From positions 5,699-69,698 of the forward strand of contig JANYBS010000026.1 in the NCBI GenBank assembly GCA_025360715.1: DNA of 64,000 bases. Direction: 5' to 3'. Below the pieces are notes generated by a model that did not search any database, was not told the DNA's origin, and saw only the letters and a list, made by a program, of their open reading frames with translations. Below are positions 55,926 through 62,235 of this stretch, one piece after another. The DNA comes from Candidatus Eiseniibacteriota bacterium. GTDB taxonomy: Bacteria > Eisenbacteria > RBG-16-71-46. Numbering within the stretch: the stretch's first letter is position 1; the number at the start of each line of letters is the position of its first letter. The translations under genes and the position numbers were made by a program.

Positions 55926-57038
55926 TCAGCGCCCTCCTTTGAATGCCACCCACGTGAGCGTGTCGGCGCCCACGCGCGCAACGCTCTGCACGCGGCCTGC
56001 GGGTGCGCTCGTGAGCGTGGCGCCGAAGGGCGCACACCAGCTGAGCCCCGCGCCGAGCACGCGCGGCGCGGTGAAGAGCGCCAGGCGCTGCACGAGTCCC
56101 ACGCGCAGCCAAGCGCCGCCCAGCAGCGCGCCGCCCTCGATCAGCACCTCGTGATGGCCCTCGCGCGCCAGGCGCTTGGCCAGCGCGAGCGCCGAGACGC
56201 GGCCTTGCACGAGCGGCAGCTTCCAAACGCGCACGCCGCGCGCTTCGAGCGCAGCCACGCGAGCGGCCGGAGCGTTCGCGCCGCATGCGACCACGGTGCC
56301 GCGCGCAAGCGTTCGCGAGAACAGCTTGAGCGTGAGCGGCAGCTTCAGCGCCGTGTCGCAGACCACGCGCAGCGGCTGCGTCGCATTCTTGATGCCGCGC
56401 GCGGTGAGCCGCGGATCGTCGGCGCGCGCGGTGCCGGCGCCGATCACGACGCAATCGCTCGTCGCGCGCAGCACGTGGCCCACGCGCCGCGCCTCGGGCC
56501 CGGTGATCCAGCGCGAGTGACCCTTGGCGTCGGCGATGCGGCCGTCGAGCGTGGCCGCCACCTTCCACGTGACGCGCGGCAGGCCGTGCTCGTGAACGCG
56601 CAGGTAGCTCGCGAGCGTCTCGCGCGCTTCATCGGCGCACAGACCCACTTCCACGCGGACGCCCGCGGCGCGCAGCTTGCGCAAGCCCCGGCCGTTCACG
56701 ATCGCGTGCGGGTCGCGCACCGCGACGACGCAGCGCCGGATGCCGGCGGCGATGATGGCATCGGTGCACGGCGGCGTGCGGCCCACGTGCGCGCAGGGCT
56801 CCAGCGTCACATACAGCGTGGCGCCGCGCGCGGCGGCTCCAGCCTTGGAGAGCGCCATGGCCTCGGCGTGCGGCGCGCCCAGCTGCGCATGCCAGCCCTC
56901 GGCGATCACGCGGCCGGCCTTGACCAGCACGGCTCCCACCACCGGATTGGGCGCGGTGCGCCCGCGGCCACGCTCCGCCAAGCGCAAGGCGCGCAGCATG
57001 AACGCGCGGTCGGCGGCGGCAGAGGAGGCAGTGGGCAT
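55926..57038 (-). CDS. ribD: Bifunctional riboflavin deaminase/reductase RibD
   Basis: PNPVVGAV, HAE, TLEPCAHVGRTPPC, SRWIT, IEGG; start re-set to ATG 57038. Confidence 0.97.
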   Translation of the reverse strand: MPTASSAAADRAFMLRALRLAERGRGRTAPNPVVGAVLVKAGRVIAEGWHAQLGAPHAEAMALSKAGAAARGATLYVTLEPCAHVGRTPPCTDAIIAAGIRRCVVAVRDPHAIVNGRGLRKLRAAGVRVEVGLCADEARETLASYLRVHEHGLPRVTWKVAATLDGRIADAKGHSRWITGPEARRVGHVLRATSDCVVIGAGTARADDPRLTARGIKNATQPLRVVCDTALKLPLTLKLFSRTLARGTVVACGANAPAARVAALEARGVRVWKLPLVQGRVSALALAKRLAREGHHEVLIEGGALLGGAWLRVGLVQRLALFTAPRVLGAGLSWCAPFGATLTSAPAGRVQSVARVGADTLTWVAFKGGR

Positions 57039-57055
57039 GGGAACCTTTCGCGGAG

Positions 57056-57088
57056 AATAGACAAGCCCCGAGGGGACTCCCACGGGGC
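57056..57088 (-). terminator. Putative terminator of the FMN riboswitch expression platform
   Basis: GCCCCG-U-GGG-AGUC-CCC-U-CGGGGC followed by UUGUCUAUU, between the aptamer and ribD. Confidence 0.55.
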
Positions 57089-57164
57089 CGCGAAGGACAA
57101 CGCCATGCGAGGACCGGGCCCGGGGTGCTTGCCGGACTGCGGCCTGTCAGATGCGCCGACCCTC

Positions 57165-57298
57165 CCCTTCTTTCATCCCGACTTTAACGGTCGGCCCCGG
57201 AATCACACCGGGTCTGCCATCAGCCGCGCCATGGGGGCGCAAAGCTGGGGCTCGCGGGCTGTACCGCCGGTGGGGACTTGCGCCCCGCCCCGAAGGAG
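57165..57298 (-). ncRNA. FMN riboswitch (RFN element)
   Basis: Minus strand CUUCGGGGCGGGGCGCAAGUCCCCACCGGCGGUACAGCCCGCGAGC...CAGACCCGGUGUGAUUCCGGGGCCGACCGUUAAAGUCGGGAUGAAAGAAG follows the RFN consensus; upstream of ribD. Confidence 0.96.
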
Positions 57299-57311
57299 AA
57301 AAGCGGGGCGG

Positions 57312-57340
57312 AGCATACGGCGCGAGCGCTGGGGCGTCAA
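57312..57340 (-). promoter_or_regulatory. sigma70 promoter of the rib operon
   Basis: TTGACG-17 nt-TATGCT just upstream of the riboswitch. Confidence 0.8.
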
Positions 57341-57377
57341 AAATGACGCGGCGAGGGGCCCGGTGGCCCCCCGCCGC
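57339..57377 (-). terminator. Intrinsic terminator of the small upstream transcript
   Basis: 13-bp stem GCGGCGGGGGGCC/GGCCCCUCGCCGC (one G-U pair, which only works on the minus strand), ACCG loop, then GUCAUUUUU. Confidence 0.75.
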
Positions 57378-57427
57378 TTTCGGTGCGCTGCTGGGATTCG
57401 CGAGGCGACCCAGCGGTGCTGGTCCGC

Positions 57428-57475
57428 CTAGCGGACAGCCACCTCCGCGATCCTCATCATGATGGTACTAGACAA
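57428..57475 (-). CDS. Putative 15-aa small ORF MSSTIMMRIAEVAVR (TTG start)
   Basis: Perfect SD AAAGGAGGTG 5 nt upstream of TTG; own promoter and terminator; below the ORF-track length cutoff. Confidence 0.55.
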   Translation of the reverse strand: MSSTIMMRIAEVAVR

Positions 57476-57503
57476 TGGACCACCTCCTTTCTTGCGTTCG
57501 ATC

Positions 57504-57533
57504 AGCATAGGAGTGGCCAGAAAGACGAGTCAA
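57504..57533 (-). promoter_or_regulatory. sigma70 promoter of the small transcript
   Basis: TTGACT-18 nt-TATGCT with an upstream A6 tract (UP-element-like). Confidence 0.72.
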
Positions 57534-57583
57534 CGGGGTTTTTTGGCGCCGCTCGGGCCGCGGGCCCCCAGCGTACGGAACGC

Positions 57584-58180
57584 TCAATAGTGGATCGCGA
57601 AGCGCGCCGTCCAGACCGACCAGGTGCCCTGCGTGACCGGCACGATGCGGGTGCCCAGTTCGATGCCGACGCCCACCACGCTGTTGATCCGCGGCCCCAG
57701 CGTGAGGTCGGCCGCGAACTCCGGCTTGGCCTCGCTCACGGTGAGGTCGCCAAACGCCGCGCCGCCGCCGGCCACGCTGAGGTCCGCATGCGGCAGAGCC
57801 AGGCCGGGGCCGAAGGCAAGGTGCGTGAACGGGCCCTTCTTCGGCTGGTAGCTGGCCATGAGCGCCACGTCGAACATGGCGTAGTCGAGCCCGGCGTTCA
57901 CGCTGCCGCGCCTGGTCTGGCTCGAGCCGAGCAGGTTGAACGCGATCGTGGGGCCCAGGCGCCACTGGGCATTGAGCGGATAGTCGATGCCCGCGGCCAC
58001 GGAGATCGAGCCCGCGGGTGCGAGCGAGTCCGATACCAGTTTCGCATAGCCGAACGCCACGTGGCCGTGCCACGCGTCGAGCTTCATGTAGGCATCCGCC
58101 GGCCGCGCCATGCCGAGGACGGCGAGTGTCGCGAGCAGCACGGCGAGCAAGGCGGCCGGGGCGGAACGGACTCGGATCAT
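57584..58180 (-). CDS. Exported outer-membrane beta-barrel protein (small OMP-like)
   Basis: Signal peptide ending ADA, alternating amphipathic strands, terminal ARFAIHY (BAM beta-signal-like aromatic end); SD GGAG upstream of ATG 58180. Confidence 0.7.
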   Translation of the reverse strand: MIRVRSAPAALLAVLLATLAVLGMARPADAYMKLDAWHGHVAFGYAKLVSDSLAPAGSISVAAGIDYPLNAQWRLGPTIAFNLLGSSQTRRGSVNAGLDYAMFDVALMASYQPKKGPFTHLAFGPGLALPHADLSVAGGGAAFGDLTVSEAKPEFAADLTLGPRINSVVGVGIELGTRIVPVTQGTWSVWTARFAIHY

Positions 58181-58350
58181 GCGGTTCTCCGGATGGGCGG
58201 GGCTGCGGACGCTTACGTGGCGGGGAATCGCCGCCTCGCAGGGCCATACACCGTGCGAGGCCCCGCAGTGCCGCCATAACAGCGCCGGCGGCGGATACGA
58301 GACCGCCCGCGGAGCGAAGCCCCACGGGCGGAGGAACTCTCTTGCGCGCC

Positions 58351-58380
58351 ATTCTATTGGCGCGCCGCGCACAGCGTCAA
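58351..58380 (-). promoter_or_regulatory. sigma70 promoter upstream of the OMP gene
   Basis: TTGACG-18 nt-TAGAAT; -10 flanked by inverted repeat GCGCGCCA/TGGCGCGC. Confidence 0.72.
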
Positions 58381-58634
58381 TCGCGGCTCTGGCCACTTTC
58401 CTTGTAAGCGGAGTTGAGCGCATTCGTGAGCTTCTCGCTCAGATGGACGGGAACGCTCACGTTCTCCTTCGCCTGGTAAAGGTGGATCGTGTGCTGGATC
58501 GAATCCACTTCGAGCTGGCAATGCGAACAGTTCGCGAGGTGGCCGTCGATCGCGGTCCTCAGCTCGCTCCGGGCGTCGTCGTCGAGGTACTCCCAGAGCT
58601 GGTCGAGCACTTCCTGACAGGACAGGCGCTTCAC
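58377..58634 (-). CDS. Small soluble zf-HC2 (RsrA-like) anti-sigma factor
   Basis: LSCQEVLDQLWEYLDD...HLANCSHC...VPVHL, the classical ZAS pattern; start re-set to GTG 58634. Confidence 0.85.
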   Translation of the reverse strand: MKRLSCQEVLDQLWEYLDDDARSELRTAIDGHLANCSHCQLEVDSIQHTIHLYQAKENVSVPVHLSEKLTNALNSAYKESGQSRD

Positions 58635-58922: not shown

Positions 58923-58998
58923 TGGTGACCCGTGCTGGGATCGAACCAGCGACACCCTGATTAAAAGTCAGGTGCTCTACCGACTGAGCTAACGGGTC
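58923..58998 (-). tRNA. tRNA-Lys (anticodon TTT)
   Basis: 76 nt: acceptor GACCCGT/ACGGGTC, D-arm AGCTCAGTCGGTAGAGC, anticodon arm CCTGA-CTTTTAA-TCAGG, T-arm GGTTCGATCC, encoded CCA. Confidence 0.98.
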
Positions 58999-59151: not shown

Positions 59152-62100
59152 TTACGCCGGCGTCGCCTCGCCTGCCGGGGCCAGATCGTCCTCGCGCAGC
59201 GGGGCGGTCTCCTCGGCGGTGTGGGTCTTGGCGACGACCGTGTAGATGGCCGGCAGCACGAAGAGCGTGAACACGGTGCCGATCACCATGCCGGTCACCA
59301 GCACCATACCGATGCTGTTTCGCGCGCCGGCGCCAGGGCCGTGCGCGAAGATGAGCGGCAAGTGGCCGAACACCGTCGCGGCGGTGGTCATGAGGATCGG
59401 GCGAAGGCGTGTGCCCGCGGCCTCGATCACGGCGGCCGCCTTGTCCCTGCCCTGCTGCTGAAGGTGGTTGGCGAACTCCACGATCAGGATGCCGTTCTTG
59501 GCCACCAGACCGATCAGCGTGATGAGACCCACCTGACTGTAGATATTGATCGACGTGAGCCCAAGGAACGAGAACAGCAGCGCGCCGGCGACCGCGAGCG
59601 GCGCGGAGCCGACCAAGATCACGAATGGATCGCGGAAGCTCTCGAACTGCGCCGCGAGCACCAGGAAGATCAGGATGATCGAGAGCAGGAAGACTCCGAG
59701 AAAACCCCCGCCTTCGGTGCGTAGCTGCCGCGACTCACCCGCGTAGTCGAGCGAGTACCCACGCGGCATGATCTTCTTCGCTTCGGTCTCGAGGAAGCCC
59801 AGCGCCTGATCGAGCGGCACACCGGGCGGGATCACCGCCTGGATACGCACGGCATTCAGCTGCTGGAAGCGCTTGAGCTCGCGCGGCTGCGTGGACGTCG
59901 TGATGGTCGCGAACGTGGACAACGGCACCAGCTTGCCATTGGGCCCGGTCACATAGATGTCCTGCAGCTGCTCCGCATTGAGTCGCTCGGAACGCTTGAT
60001 CTGCGGGATCACCTTGTAGCTGCGGCCCTGGATGCTGAACCGGTTCACGTAGTTACCGCCCAGGCTCGTGGCGAGGTCGCGGCCCACCTGGCTCATGTCG
60101 AGCCCGAGCGAGCGTACCTTGTCGCGATCGAAGACCACTTCCGCCTGTGGCTGGTCGAACTTCAGGTCCGGATCGACGTACATGAACATGCCGCTCGCGT
60201 ACGCCTTGCCCACGAGCTGGTTCGCGATTCCCGCAAGTTCCTGCGGCTCGGCCGTGGAGGCGATCACGAGGTCAACTGGGAAGTTGCCGCCGCCCGGAAG
60301 CGCCGGCGGCGTGAGCGAGATCGCGCGGATGCCAGGGATCTGCGAGAAGCCGCCCGAGACCATCTGCGAGAGCTGCTGCGTGCTGCGCTTCCGCTCGTTC
60401 CAAGGCTTGGTCACCATGCCGGCAAAGCCACCGCCCGGCGACGTGATCTGGAAGATGTTCTTGGTCTCGGGGAACGAGTGATATGTGTCGTAGATGCTCT
60501 TGGCGAACATCTTGGTCTGGTCGAGCGTCGCATTCGGCGCCGCCTGGACGATGCCGAAGACGATGCTCTGGTCTTCCTGCGGTGCGAGTTCCTTCTGCGA
60601 GAACATGTAAAAAGGAATCGTAAGCAGCACCACGATCACCCAGAGCGTGAGCACGACCGCGCGGTTCTGCAGCGTGGCAGTAAGACGGCCCTGATACCAC
60701 ACGCGGAAACGGTCGAAGTCGCGATTGATGCGGCCGGCGAAGCCCTTCTCGTTGTCGCCCGCGCGCAGCAGACGCGAGGCAAGCATCGGCGACAGCGTGA
60801 GCGCGACCACGCCCGAGATCAGCACAGCGCCGGCGAGCGTGAAGGCGAACTCGCGGAAGAGCGTGCCCGTGAGGCCACCCTGCAGACCGATCGGCGTGTA
60901 CACCGCGGCGAGCGTGATGGTCATGGCGATGATCGGGCCGACCAGCTCGCGCGCCGCGTGCAGCGCGGCTTGGAACGGCGTCTCCCCTTCATGCACGTGG
61001 CGTTCGATGTTCTCGACCATGACGATGGCGTCGTCGACGACGAGACCTACCGACAGCACGATCGCGAGCAGCGTGAGCAGATTGATCGTGAAGCCCGACA
61101 CCTGCATGAGGAATACGGCGCCGATGAGCGAGATGGGGATCGCGATCACCGGGATGATCAGTCCGCGCACCGATCCCAGGAACAGGAAGATCACAACGAC
61201 GACGATGAGCAGAGTCTCCGTTAGCGTCTTGAGCACTTCCTGGATGGCGTCCTGGATATAGACCGTGGAGTCATACGGAATGCCCGCCTTCATGCCGACC
61301 GGCAACTGCGCCTGGATATCCTTCACCGCGACGCGGACGTTCTTGATCACGTCGAGCGAGTTCGCCGTCGGCAGCACCCAGATGCCCATGAACGTGGCGG
61401 ACTCACCGTTGAACTTGACCTCGGAGTCGTAATCCTCGGCGCCCAGCACGACGTCGGCCACATCGCCCAGCCGCACGATATCGCTGCCGTTCTGCCGCAC
61501 GACCAGGTTGCGGAACTCCTCGGGCGTCTTGAGATCGGTGTTGGCCACCAGGTTCACCGAGGTCATGGTGCCCTTGGTACGGCCCAGGGCGCTGAGGTAG
61601 TTGTTGCCCGAGAGCGCCGTCCACACTTGCGACGACGAGAGTCCGTGCGCCGCCAGTTCGGTGGGTTTGAGCCACACGCGCATCGCGAATGTGCGGCCGC
61701 CCAGGATGTCGGCGCGCTGCACGCCGCTGATGGCGCTCAGCTTGGGCTGCACCACACGCGTGAGATAGTCGCTGATCTGGTTCTGGTCCAGATCGGCCGA
61801 TGAGAAGCCCAGGTACATGGCGGCGAACTGTGCGTCGCTCGTCTGCACCTGGATGATCGGCGCCTGCGCCTCGGGCGGCAGGTCGTTGCGGACCTGCGCG
61901 ACCTTGGACTGGATCTGCGTGAGCGCGGCATTGGTATCGTAGTTGAGCTTGAGGTGCACGGTGATCGTGCTCACGCTCTGCGCGCTCGAGGATTCCACGT
62001 AATCGATGCCATCGGCGCTGGCGATCACACGCTCGAGCGGCGACGTGATGAAGCCGCGCACCAGGTCGGCGTTGGCGCCAACGTAAACAGTGCTCACGGT

Positions 62101-62235
62101 GACGACCGCGCTATCACTGCGCGGGTACTGGCGAACGGTGAGCGAGCGGATCGACTGGAGGCCGGCGATCAGGATGATCAAGTTGACGACGATCGCGAGG
62201 ACCGGCCTGCGGATGAAGAGGTCGGTGAACTTCAT
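59152..62235 (-). CDS. RND efflux permease (AcrB/MexI/MexW-like)
   Basis: FIRRPVLA, GLVVDDAIVMVEN, AQFESFRDP, KNGILIVEFA, RLRPILMT; 1027 aa. Confidence 0.97.
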   Translation of the reverse strand: MKFTDLFIRRPVLAIVVNLIILIAGLQSIRSLTVRQYPRSDSAVVTVSTVYVGANADLVRGFITSPLERVIASADGIDYVESSSAQSVSTITVHLKLNYDTNAALTQIQSKVAQVRNDLPPEAQAPIIQVQTSDAQFAAMYLGFSSADLDQNQISDYLTRVVQPKLSAISGVQRADILGGRTFAMRVWLKPTELAAHGLSSSQVWTALSGNNYLSALGRTKGTMTSVNLVANTDLKTPEEFRNLVVRQNGSDIVRLGDVADVVLGAEDYDSEVKFNGESATFMGIWVLPTANSLDVIKNVRVAVKDIQAQLPVGMKAGIPYDSTVYIQDAIQEVLKTLTETLLIVVVVIFLFLGSVRGLIIPVIAIPISLIGAVFLMQVSGFTINLLTLLAIVLSVGLVVDDAIVMVENIERHVHEGETPFQAALHAARELVGPIIAMTITLAAVYTPIGLQGGLTGTLFREFAFTLAGAVLISGVVALTLSPMLASRLLRAGDNEKGFAGRINRDFDRFRVWYQGRLTATLQNRAVVLTLWVIVVLLTIPFYMFSQKELAPQEDQSIVFGIVQAAPNATLDQTKMFAKSIYDTYHSFPETKNIFQITSPGGGFAGMVTKPWNERKRSTQQLSQMVSGGFSQIPGIRAISLTPPALPGGGNFPVDLVIASTAEPQELAGIANQLVGKAYASGMFMYVDPDLKFDQPQAEVVFDRDKVRSLGLDMSQVGRDLATSLGGNYVNRFSIQGRSYKVIPQIKRSERLNAEQLQDIYVTGPNGKLVPLSTFATITTSTQPRELKRFQQLNAVRIQAVIPPGVPLDQALGFLETEAKKIMPRGYSLDYAGESRQLRTEGGGFLGVFLLSIILIFLVLAAQFESFRDPFVILVGSAPLAVAGALLFSFLGLTSINIYSQVGLITLIGLVAKNGILIVEFANHLQQQGRDKAAAVIEAAGTRLRPILMTTAATVFGHLPLIFAHGPGAGARNSIGMVLVTGMVIGTVFTLFVLPAIYTVVAKTHTAEETAPLREDDLAPAGEATPA

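Follow-up and report, generated by a model that had tools for sequence, protein, structure and literature searches.

The closest described counterparts of the element analyzed here are the rre genes of alpha-proteobacteria, which encode small mRNAs able to pair with the 3′ end of 16S rRNA (Hahn et al., 2017; PMC5711450). The element lies at positions 57339-57544 on the minus strand of a 64,000-nt stretch of DNA from a Candidatus Eiseniibacteriota bacterium (GenBank assembly GCA_025360715.1, contig JANYBS010000026.1), which is called the window in the following. The rreB gene of Bradyrhizobium is reported to give a 165-nt mRNA with 17 nt complementary to the 16S 3′ end, a GTG start codon, and a small open reading frame (sORF) of 14 codons (PMC5711450). 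This RNA co-sediments with 30S subunits, its translation is very weak as a result of the long Shine-Dalgarno (SD) sequence and the GTG start, and replacement of the start codon lengthens its half-life from roughly 10 to roughly 37 min; a free 5′ end of the SD, with the 3′ part paired, was proposed (PMC5711450). A fusion of RreB to enhanced green fluorescent protein (EGFP) gave a weak, detectable signal, and the synthetic RreB and RreR peptides were unstructured. Four orders of alpha-proteobacteria were reported to have genes of this kind, among them rreR, whose sORF has 18 codons; rreB is found in Bradyrhizobiaceae and rreR in Rhodobacterales. Binding to 30S subunits, weak translation and start-codon-dependent decay were demonstrated only in B. 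japonicum rreB, and the function of the rre genes was called elusive (PMC5711450). The main text of that paper mentions neither Rfam nor phyla beyond the Proteobacteria. Our literature search retrieved no later work on small mRNAs with extended SD sequences that assigns a function, and no further bacterial paper on rreB or rreR. Two Rfam families of small RNAs (sRNAs) are also relevant. IGR-5 of Mycobacterium smegmatis (family Ms_IGR-5) is described as a validated but uncharacterised sRNA (bioRxiv 10.1101/2021.12.14.472595), and CC2171 was confirmed by Northern blot in Methylorubrum (bioRxiv 10.1101/2022.01.24.477521); none of the papers found on these families appears to assign a function.

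The sequence places the element of the window among the rre-type small mRNAs, in a phylum from which rre genes had not been reported before. Every hallmark of these genes that can be read from a sequence is present: a promoter and a terminator of its own, 17 bp of complementarity to 16S rRNA, a non-ATG start codon and an sORF of 15 codons. The element is a genuine small gene, conserved and overlooked by gene callers. We consider it likely that it is a stand-alone rre-type small mRNA, a divergent member of the Ms_IGR-5 lineage, which docks on the ribosome by the mechanism proposed below. A first-pass annotation of the window, made from the letters alone, had listed most of the following features, and direct reading of the sequence recovered on the minus strand each of those it had listed. 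Its view of a stand-alone unit running from promoter to terminator and overlooked by gene callers agrees with the presence of an own promoter and a 13-pair terminator.

57504-57533, minus strand: sigma-70-type promoter TTGACT-18-TATGCT, 9 of 12 consensus matches
57342-57497, minus strand: predicted small transcript of about 156 nt, beginning with the A of ACGCAAG and ending in the T run of the terminator, both ends predicted
57476-57492, minus strand: extended SD AGAAAGGAGGTGGTCCA, 17 nt, abutting the TTG start codon
57428-57475, minus strand: sORF MSSTIMMRIAEVAVR, with TTG start (57475-57473), 15 codons and TAG stop (57430-57428)
57447-57483, minus strand: helix P1, in which 57483-57471 (3′ half of the SD and start codon) pairs with GAUGAGGAUCGC (57458-57447)
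57439-57446, minus strand: second SD-like box GGAGGTGG, 8 nt 5′ of the stop codon (box 2)
57422-57436, minus strand: stop hairpin GTCCGC-TAG-GCGGAC, with TAG as the loop
57415-57443, minus strand: extended hairpin GGUGGCUGUCCGC-UAG-GCGGACCAGCACC of the minimum free energy (MFE) fold, with TAG in the apical loop and the 6-bp stop hairpin as its tip
57390-57414, minus strand: second hairpin GCUGGG...CCCAGC, seen in sequence and MFE fold, holding the conserved AAUCCCAG motif
57382-57393, minus strand: CACC box CAGCAGCGCACC, the conserved distal partner of box 2
57339-57377, minus strand: intrinsic terminator with a 13-pair stem (12 G-C; 57377-57348) and a T run (57343-57339)

In the interval 57000-58000, two promoter-like sites were observed, with 0.1 expected from shuffled sequences, and a -10-like hexamer is present 6-8 nt 5′ of the conserved ACGC end in the loci L002, L004, L006, L008, and L170 (L numbers denote loci and G numbers genomes, G000 being the genome of the window). 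The predicted 156-nt RNA folds with an MFE of -80.7 kcal/mol (z = -3.87 compared to shuffles). The window's own assembly (253 contigs, 96% complete) contains no 16S gene, and pairing was scored on the 16S rRNA of relatives: three genomes of the same genus (G008, G015, G011) and three of the same family (G022, G019, G017) have the 16S 3′ end ...GGCTGGATCACCTCCTTTCTAG, with which the extended SD forms 17 consecutive pairs, one of them G-U. The six 16S ends thus confirm the 17-nt complementarity that had been noticed at the outset. In the 4.29-Mb genome, there is a single occurrence of the core 13-mer AAGGAGGTGRTCC and none of the control pattern. The element is not a chance sequence.

With respect to known families, an Rfam scan of the window at the gathering threshold found nothing at the element. 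When matches were ranked by E-value, RF02471 (Ms_IGR-5) aligned over its full model (1-184) with 34.9 bits (E = 1e-6), and RF01867 (CC2171) aligned at the same coordinates, again over the full model (1-159), with 28 bits (E = 1.9e-4). Of 20 scanned loci, four passed the RF02471 cut-off, namely L069 (67.7 bits), L082 (57.5 bits), L042 (51.6 bits), and L038 (47.7 bits), all of them from phyla other than that of the window. An nhmmer profile built from these four loci alone matched the window end to end at 57497-57380 with an E-value of 1.7e-16. Because a profile of above-cut-off members finds it with this significance, the element is, as judged from its sequence, a divergent homologue of the RF02471 lineage. 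The Ms_IGR-5 transcript is reported to begin with an A, as does the predicted RNA of the window. When RF02471 was run over G000 and 20 relatives (21 genomes), the matches were G000 itself and a partial one of 22 bits (model positions 118-178) in G003, and none of 14 control genomes matched; this search was uninformative on distribution and was replaced by a pattern search with the 17-mer. The first-pass annotation had recognised no named family in the element. This statement does not stand, since the rre genes were published in 2017, full-length sub-threshold matches to RF02471 and RF01867 exist, and relatives in other phyla exceed the RF02471 cut-off.

The 17-mer AAGGAGGTGRTCCAKTG was found in 115 of the 206 genomes of the phylum (G000 counted), and the reversed control in none of the 206. 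It is present in 66 of 121 high-quality genomes of the phylum, in 13 of 15 other genomes of the window's genus, in 61 of 88 genomes of family f1 and in 38 of 41 genomes of family f18. There is one copy per genome, except for two copies in G178 and G180. The phylum counts include one unpublished genome (G026), on which the conclusions do not depend. BLAST searches with the 231-nt region over G000 and 40 relatives revealed the whole unit with 78% identity in G024, which belongs to another genus of the same family, and also in the sister family f3, and overlooked most copies of the same genus. The overlooked copies represent a different subtype, termed type B, which has only the 18-nt SD and start codon in common with the type A element of the window, and each genome contains either type A or type B, never both. 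The type B copies L022-L026, L166-L169, and L171, from the genus and family of the window, have a conserved hairpin-like sequence GGGAGGGTTGGGTCCCTCC about 25 nt 5′ of the SD and no obvious sigma-70 promoter, so that their transcription may differ from that of type A.

Beyond the phylum, one genome per species was scanned for the 17-mer followed by GAGGTG within 15-45 nt, which gave at least 120 loci. The layout of two SD motifs with an sORF, for which the first-pass annotation had suggested a search in relatives, occurs in many phyla. Among the matches listed, 77 are of the Rhodobacterales type by record title; the other listed matches carry the labels Acidobacteriota, Planctomycetota, Nitrospirota, Gemmatimonadota, Eisenbacteria, Krumholzibacteriia, Methylomirabilis, Myxococcales and other delta-proteobacteria, Fibrobacteraceae, and Bdellovibrionota. 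The nearest named carriers by element sequence, again among the matches listed, are metagenome-assembled genomes (MAGs) labelled Eisenbacteria (L050, L140, L101) and Gemmatimonadota (L082).

A complete sORF of 13-26 codons is present in 118 of 120 of the matches listed. The two exceptions are L036, which is cut by the end of the locus, and L053 from a Bdellovibrionota MAG, with 192 codons. L053 is the only listed locus with a frame of this length after the 17-mer, it lies directly after an ABC transporter gene, and it could be either a normal gene preceded by a very long SD or a spurious family member. The positions of start and stop were compared in the 53 unique non-Rhodobacterales sORFs among the matches listed, 52 of which have a stop codon. 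The spacer between start codon and GAGGTG measures 21-28, 34, or 39 nt, so that all three frames are used. The first in-frame stop nevertheless follows 7-12 nt after the box in 48 of the 52, at a distance of 9 nt in 36 sORFs, 8 nt in eight, 12 nt in two, and 7 nt and 10 nt in one each. The GAGGTG of box 2 is invariant in alignment A2. When the stop codon of the window's sORF occupies the A site, the distance between GGAGG and the P-site codon is about 8 nt, compared to 7 nt at the true start. This initiation-like spacing means that a terminating ribosome could re-form an SD duplex at the stop, and the second GGAGGTG would thus fit the initial suggestion of ribosome capture at this position.

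The stop codon itself is TAG in 29 of 43 non-Rhodobacterales loci among the matches listed. The idea that TAG serves as a sensor of release factor 1 (RF1) feeding a release-factor gene was rejected as a general rule: the gene downstream of the element in L105 encodes release factor 2 (RF2; prfB), which does not read UAG, and the 77 Rhodobacterales copies use all stop codons (33 TAG, 25 TGA, 18 TAA).

The encoded peptide is one candidate for the working product. On the assumption of an ordinary gene, the product would be a micropeptide of 15 residues and the long SD would merely tune its expression; the first-pass annotation had likewise considered a highly expressed micropeptide. The frame is open in nearly all listed matches, as described above, peptides resemble each other within clades (MSRxxLERGVGT in Rhodobacterales, MDSxRxxSVEVxSS in the window's genus), and the RreB-EGFP fusion was detectable. 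However, no peptide is shared across clades in the sORFs compared, and the conserved nucleotide block is translated in three frames: GGATCGCGGAGGTGGC encodes IAEVA in G000, G024, and G106 but DRGGG in family f3. With the block read in different frames, conservation does not reside in the peptide. Within clades, the conserved ends of the peptide coincide with helix P1 and the box 2 helix, and the residues in the middle are hypervariable. The synthetic peptides lack structure, and overproduction of RreB was without a growth phenotype (PMC5711450). The best-supported interpretation is that selection acts on the RNA and on the positions of translation start and stop rather than on the peptide, and a micropeptide gene appears improbable to us.

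Helix P1 is present in both the MFE and the centroid fold of the window's RNA, and P1-type pairing in type A relatives has energies of -9 to -15 kcal/mol. Start codon and P1 partner covary, with UUG/CAA in L007 and GUG/CAC in L127. In the type A folds, P1 leaves the 5′ half of the SD, AGAAAGGAG, unpaired. A second conserved interaction involves box 2, of which GGUG and the 4-5 nt after it pair with a box that ends in CACC and is located 3′ of the AAYCCCA motif that is conserved in alignments A1 and A2. The following pairs illustrate this:

Window: GGUGGCUG with CAGC-G-CACC
L007: GGUGCCUG with CAGG-A-CACC
Family f3: GGUGGCAG with CUGC-C-CACC
Further example: GGUGGCGU with ACGCCACC
Further example: GGUGGCGA with UCGCCACC
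Further example: GGUGAUUG with CAGUCACC or CAAUCGCC

In a duplex-permutation test with 29 unique pairs, the true pairs averaged -12.6 kcal/mol and the permuted pairs -9.7 ± 0.36 kcal/mol, and none of 5000 permutations reached the observed value; the partner boxes were set by alignment columns, and relatedness of the sequences inflates the result. The second "SD" thus appears to be one strand of a helix with the CACC box. A role of the CACC box in closing the first SD after translation was considered and rejected, as only 4 nt match in the window (CACC versus GGUG).

RNA libraries contain close relatives of the element. Contigs that are 90-98% like 57379-57536 were found in three metatranscriptome runs, each from a different study, and one contig of 160 nt starts about 5 nt beyond 57491, near the predicted transcript start. 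Another contig of 151 nt spans 57245-57395 and may be DNA. Such contigs do not show ends, strand, or level, and carry-over of DNA is possible, so that their presence does not prove transcription.

From these data and from the properties of rreB, we propose the following mechanism. Transcription would start about 5 nt 5′ of the 17-nt stretch, which could pair with the whole single-stranded tail of 16S rRNA. The unpaired 5′ half of the SD would act as a docking seed for the 30S subunit, and P1, which holds the 3′ half of the SD and the TTG codon, would have to melt on 30S binding; both steps are suggested by the folds and have been proposed for rreB. The combination of an over-long SD and a weak start codon, shown in rreB to give tight 30S binding and slow, rare translation, would be expected to do the same here. 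An initiating ribosome would then read 15 codons and open P1 as well as the helix holding the second GGAGGUG box. It would halt at UAG with box 2 about 8 nt from the P-site codon, a distance that in the sequence equals initiation geometry and that may allow renewed engagement. The working product would be the engagement of RNA and ribosome together with translation-coupled unfolding and decay, as the frame-independent conservation suggests, and not the peptide. The early impression that the RNA looks built to hold a ribosome is supported by analogy, as 30S co-sedimentation, weak translation, and start-codon-dependent decay are experimentally established for rreB (PMC5711450). Simple titration of ribosomes is unlikely as a role, since overexpression of rreB derivatives (20-fold for 17c-rreB) did not affect growth (PMC5711450). 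The first-pass annotation had also named ribosome sequestration and a link to 16S maturation as possible roles. The most probable role of the RNA would be to sense or occupy free 30S subunits, or the capacity for translation, termination or rescue.

Several points weigh against a docking RNA of the rre type and the Ms_IGR-5 lineage. For this organism, the ends of the transcript, its binding to ribosomes and its translation are inferred. With both RF02471 (45 bits) and RF01867 (75 bits), the score of the element stays under the gathering score. A profile of 73 Rhodobacterales rreR elements aligns to 26 nt alone (57493-57468, E = 3e-4), and because the similarity spans this short segment only, the apparent kinship with rreR and rreB could reflect convergence that the invariant 16S tail imposes. 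RNAalifold, applied to the MAFFT alignment A2, a sequence alignment that is not structure-aware, recovered just the 4 bp of the GGUG:CACC core and a trivial hairpin of 3 bp, and no pair was compensatory; the proposed box 2-CACC covariation therefore depends on the kinship-inflated duplex-permutation test. In the window's RNA, box 2 has three possible CACC partners, namely a local one, the distal one, and one in the terminator loop. The unaffected growth on rreB overexpression and, in two families of the order, the position directly 5′ of a flavin mononucleotide (FMN) riboswitch, with which a local role in cis would be compatible, point in the same direction.

A classical trans-acting sRNA, in which AAUCCCA, the CACC box, or the G-rich boxes would base-pair with target mRNAs and the sORF would be incidental, has some appeal. 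Rfam files both Ms_IGR-5 and CC2171 as sRNA genes, discrete Northern bands were reported in Methylorubrum (bioRxiv 10.1101/2022.01.24.477521), IGR-5 of M. smegmatis is counted as a validated sRNA (bioRxiv 10.1101/2021.12.14.472595), and AAYCCCA is strongly conserved. Such a function would however leave unexplained the cross-phylum match of 16-17 nt to 16S rRNA, the spaced start codon, and the fixed in-frame stop; moreover, rreB co-sediments with 30S subunits and not with free RNA (PMC5711450), and no target is known. We therefore regard a base-pairing regulator of this kind as unlikely.

The genomic context bears on a third explanation. The terminator T run (57343-57339) overlaps the -35 region TTGACG (57340-57335) of a second promoter (57340-57312), which is followed by an FMN riboswitch (57161-57301, 113 bits) and the genes ribD, ribE, ribBA, ribH, and nusB. 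The first-pass annotation had considered the element as a translation-sensing attenuator of this rib-nusB operon, acting in cis in such a way that occupancy of the sORF decides on the terminator and on read-through into the riboswitch and the rib genes. In line with this, the order of element and FMN riboswitch recurs in five loci of sister family f3 (L003, L004, L005, L006, and L014, the last from the unpublished G026), and the 151-nt library contig, if it is RNA, extends over the terminator and the rib promoter into the riboswitch. However, five genomes of the same genus (G001, G008, G015, G003, and G011) have the same rib promoter and riboswitch without an element upstream and hold a single type B copy elsewhere; in G003 and G011 even the upstream gene is apparently common with the window, to go by its last codons. 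G024, the genome with the most similar copy of the element, has no FMN riboswitch within 1.4 kb downstream, and in 41 loci from other taxa the neighbouring genes vary and frequently lie on the other strand. The rib operon is equipped with a promoter and a ligand sensor of its own, and the peptides contain neither a run of regulatory codons nor a shared or repeated codon class. A dedicated regulation of the rib operon is therefore unlikely, and as an explanation of the element the attenuator is very improbable. The presence of one copy per genome, of either type, suggests that the two types can replace each other and that the cassette is able to move.

Further upstream in the window, on the same strand, are an ORF for 279 amino acids (aa) just before the element (57584-58423), for which no Pfam or NCBIfam family was found, a tRNA-Lys gene (anticodon TTT, 58923-58998) and a gene for an AcrB-family RND transporter of 1027 aa (59152-62235). 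A gene whose product has a C-terminus like that of the 279-aa ORF is located directly 5′ of the rib promoter in G003 and G011.

The neighbours in other taxa are of interest for the possible role of a ribosome-docking RNA. Of 69 Rhodobacterales-type loci tested, at least 30 (L032, L062, L110, and 27 more) have a gene for the alternative ribosome-rescue factor ArfB (NCBIfam NF006718) as their first ORF downstream, on the same strand, with ORF starts at about +130 to +250 from the SD; eight further loci had no usable downstream ORF, and owing to kinship within the Rhodobacterales these cases amount to about one event. A Vut_1/YhhQ-like transporter gene was present upstream in 6 of 6 loci of this type checked. 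In a Planctomycetota MAG, prfB lies directly downstream on the same strand (L105:1116-2309, minus strand), and in a Methylomirabilis MAG the same position is occupied by a gene for a Smr-domain protein of 115 aa (L069:1239-1586, minus strand). The main text of PMC5711450 does not mention these neighbours. Taken together, arfB in many Rhodobacterales, prfB in the planctomycete and the Smr gene in Methylomirabilis hint at a link of the element class to termination and ribosome rescue. A broader proposal, which we put forward tentatively and consider rather doubtful, is that rreB/rreR, CC2171, Ms_IGR-5, and the element of the window are a single ancient, single-copy class of ribosome-docking RNAs in at least ten phyla, whose function lies in the translation of a structured RNA rather than in a peptide: the whole 16S tail would pair to capture a 30S subunit, and the ribosome, after a short run of fixed length, would be re-captured by the second SD at the stop codon. 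If so, the RNA would monitor or regulate the capacity for termination and ribosome rescue.

Few natural RNAs other than the rre small mRNAs are known to pair with 16S rRNA over the whole of its free 3′ tail. Since the layout is conserved, as a single copy, in a distant phylum and many more, they are more than a clade-specific curiosity, and two Rfam families of orphan sRNAs, Ms_IGR-5 and CC2171, appear to be elements of the same kind. For annotation, the pattern marks a small gene that is otherwise missed. The present analysis adds the occurrence of the layout in many phyla, the frame-independent stop with a peptide that is not conserved, the pairing of box 2 with the CACC box, and the inconstant position relative to the rib operon. 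Experiments could start from the seed at the 5′ end, from helix P1, from the helix of box 2 and the CACC box, and from the position of the stop codon.

Of the known systems, the internal SD-like element located a few nt 5′ of an in-frame stop codon in the frameshift site of prfB resembles box 2 of the element. In both cases, an SD-like box before a stop codon inside the frame could pair with the 16S tail of the translating ribosome. In contrast to prfB, no slippery sequence or downstream frame is evident in the window and no frameshift product is predicted, and the distance of about 8 nt to the P-site codon is initiation-like, whereas the spacing in prfB is short. Ms_IGR-5 of the Actinobacteria shares with the element the 5′ ACAC/ACGC...GGAAGGAGGUGGUCC sequence, the UGGAC...GAGGUGGCUG block, AAUYCC...CACC, and the terminator; it differs in that Rfam types the family as a non-coding sRNA and in that the CACC box is unpaired in the Rfam consensus structure. 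CC2171 of Caulobacter has in common the 5′ GAAAGGAGGUGAUCCAGUGUCU and the terminal hairpin, but the middle of its alignment has a low posterior probability, so that the two are comparable at the ends only. The likeness to the rre genes lies in the design: a stand-alone transcript of about 160 nt with its own promoter and terminator (predicted in silico in the window), 16-17 nt complementary to the 16S 3′ end and running up to the start codon, a non-ATG start, an sORF of similar length (14-18 codons in rre genes, 15 in the window), and a predicted hairpin that includes the 3′ half of the SD as well as the start codon, leaving the 5′ nucleotides alone free. The differences are that rre genes were reported in alpha-proteobacteria only, whereas the window represents another phylum, and that the start codon is TTG instead of GTG, as a result of which the complementarity in the window ends one base before the start codon. 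Furthermore, PMC5711450 stresses conservation of the peptide within clades, whereas the loci compared here share no conserved peptide and use different frames, and neither the second SD-like box nor the CACC box appears in the main text of that paper.

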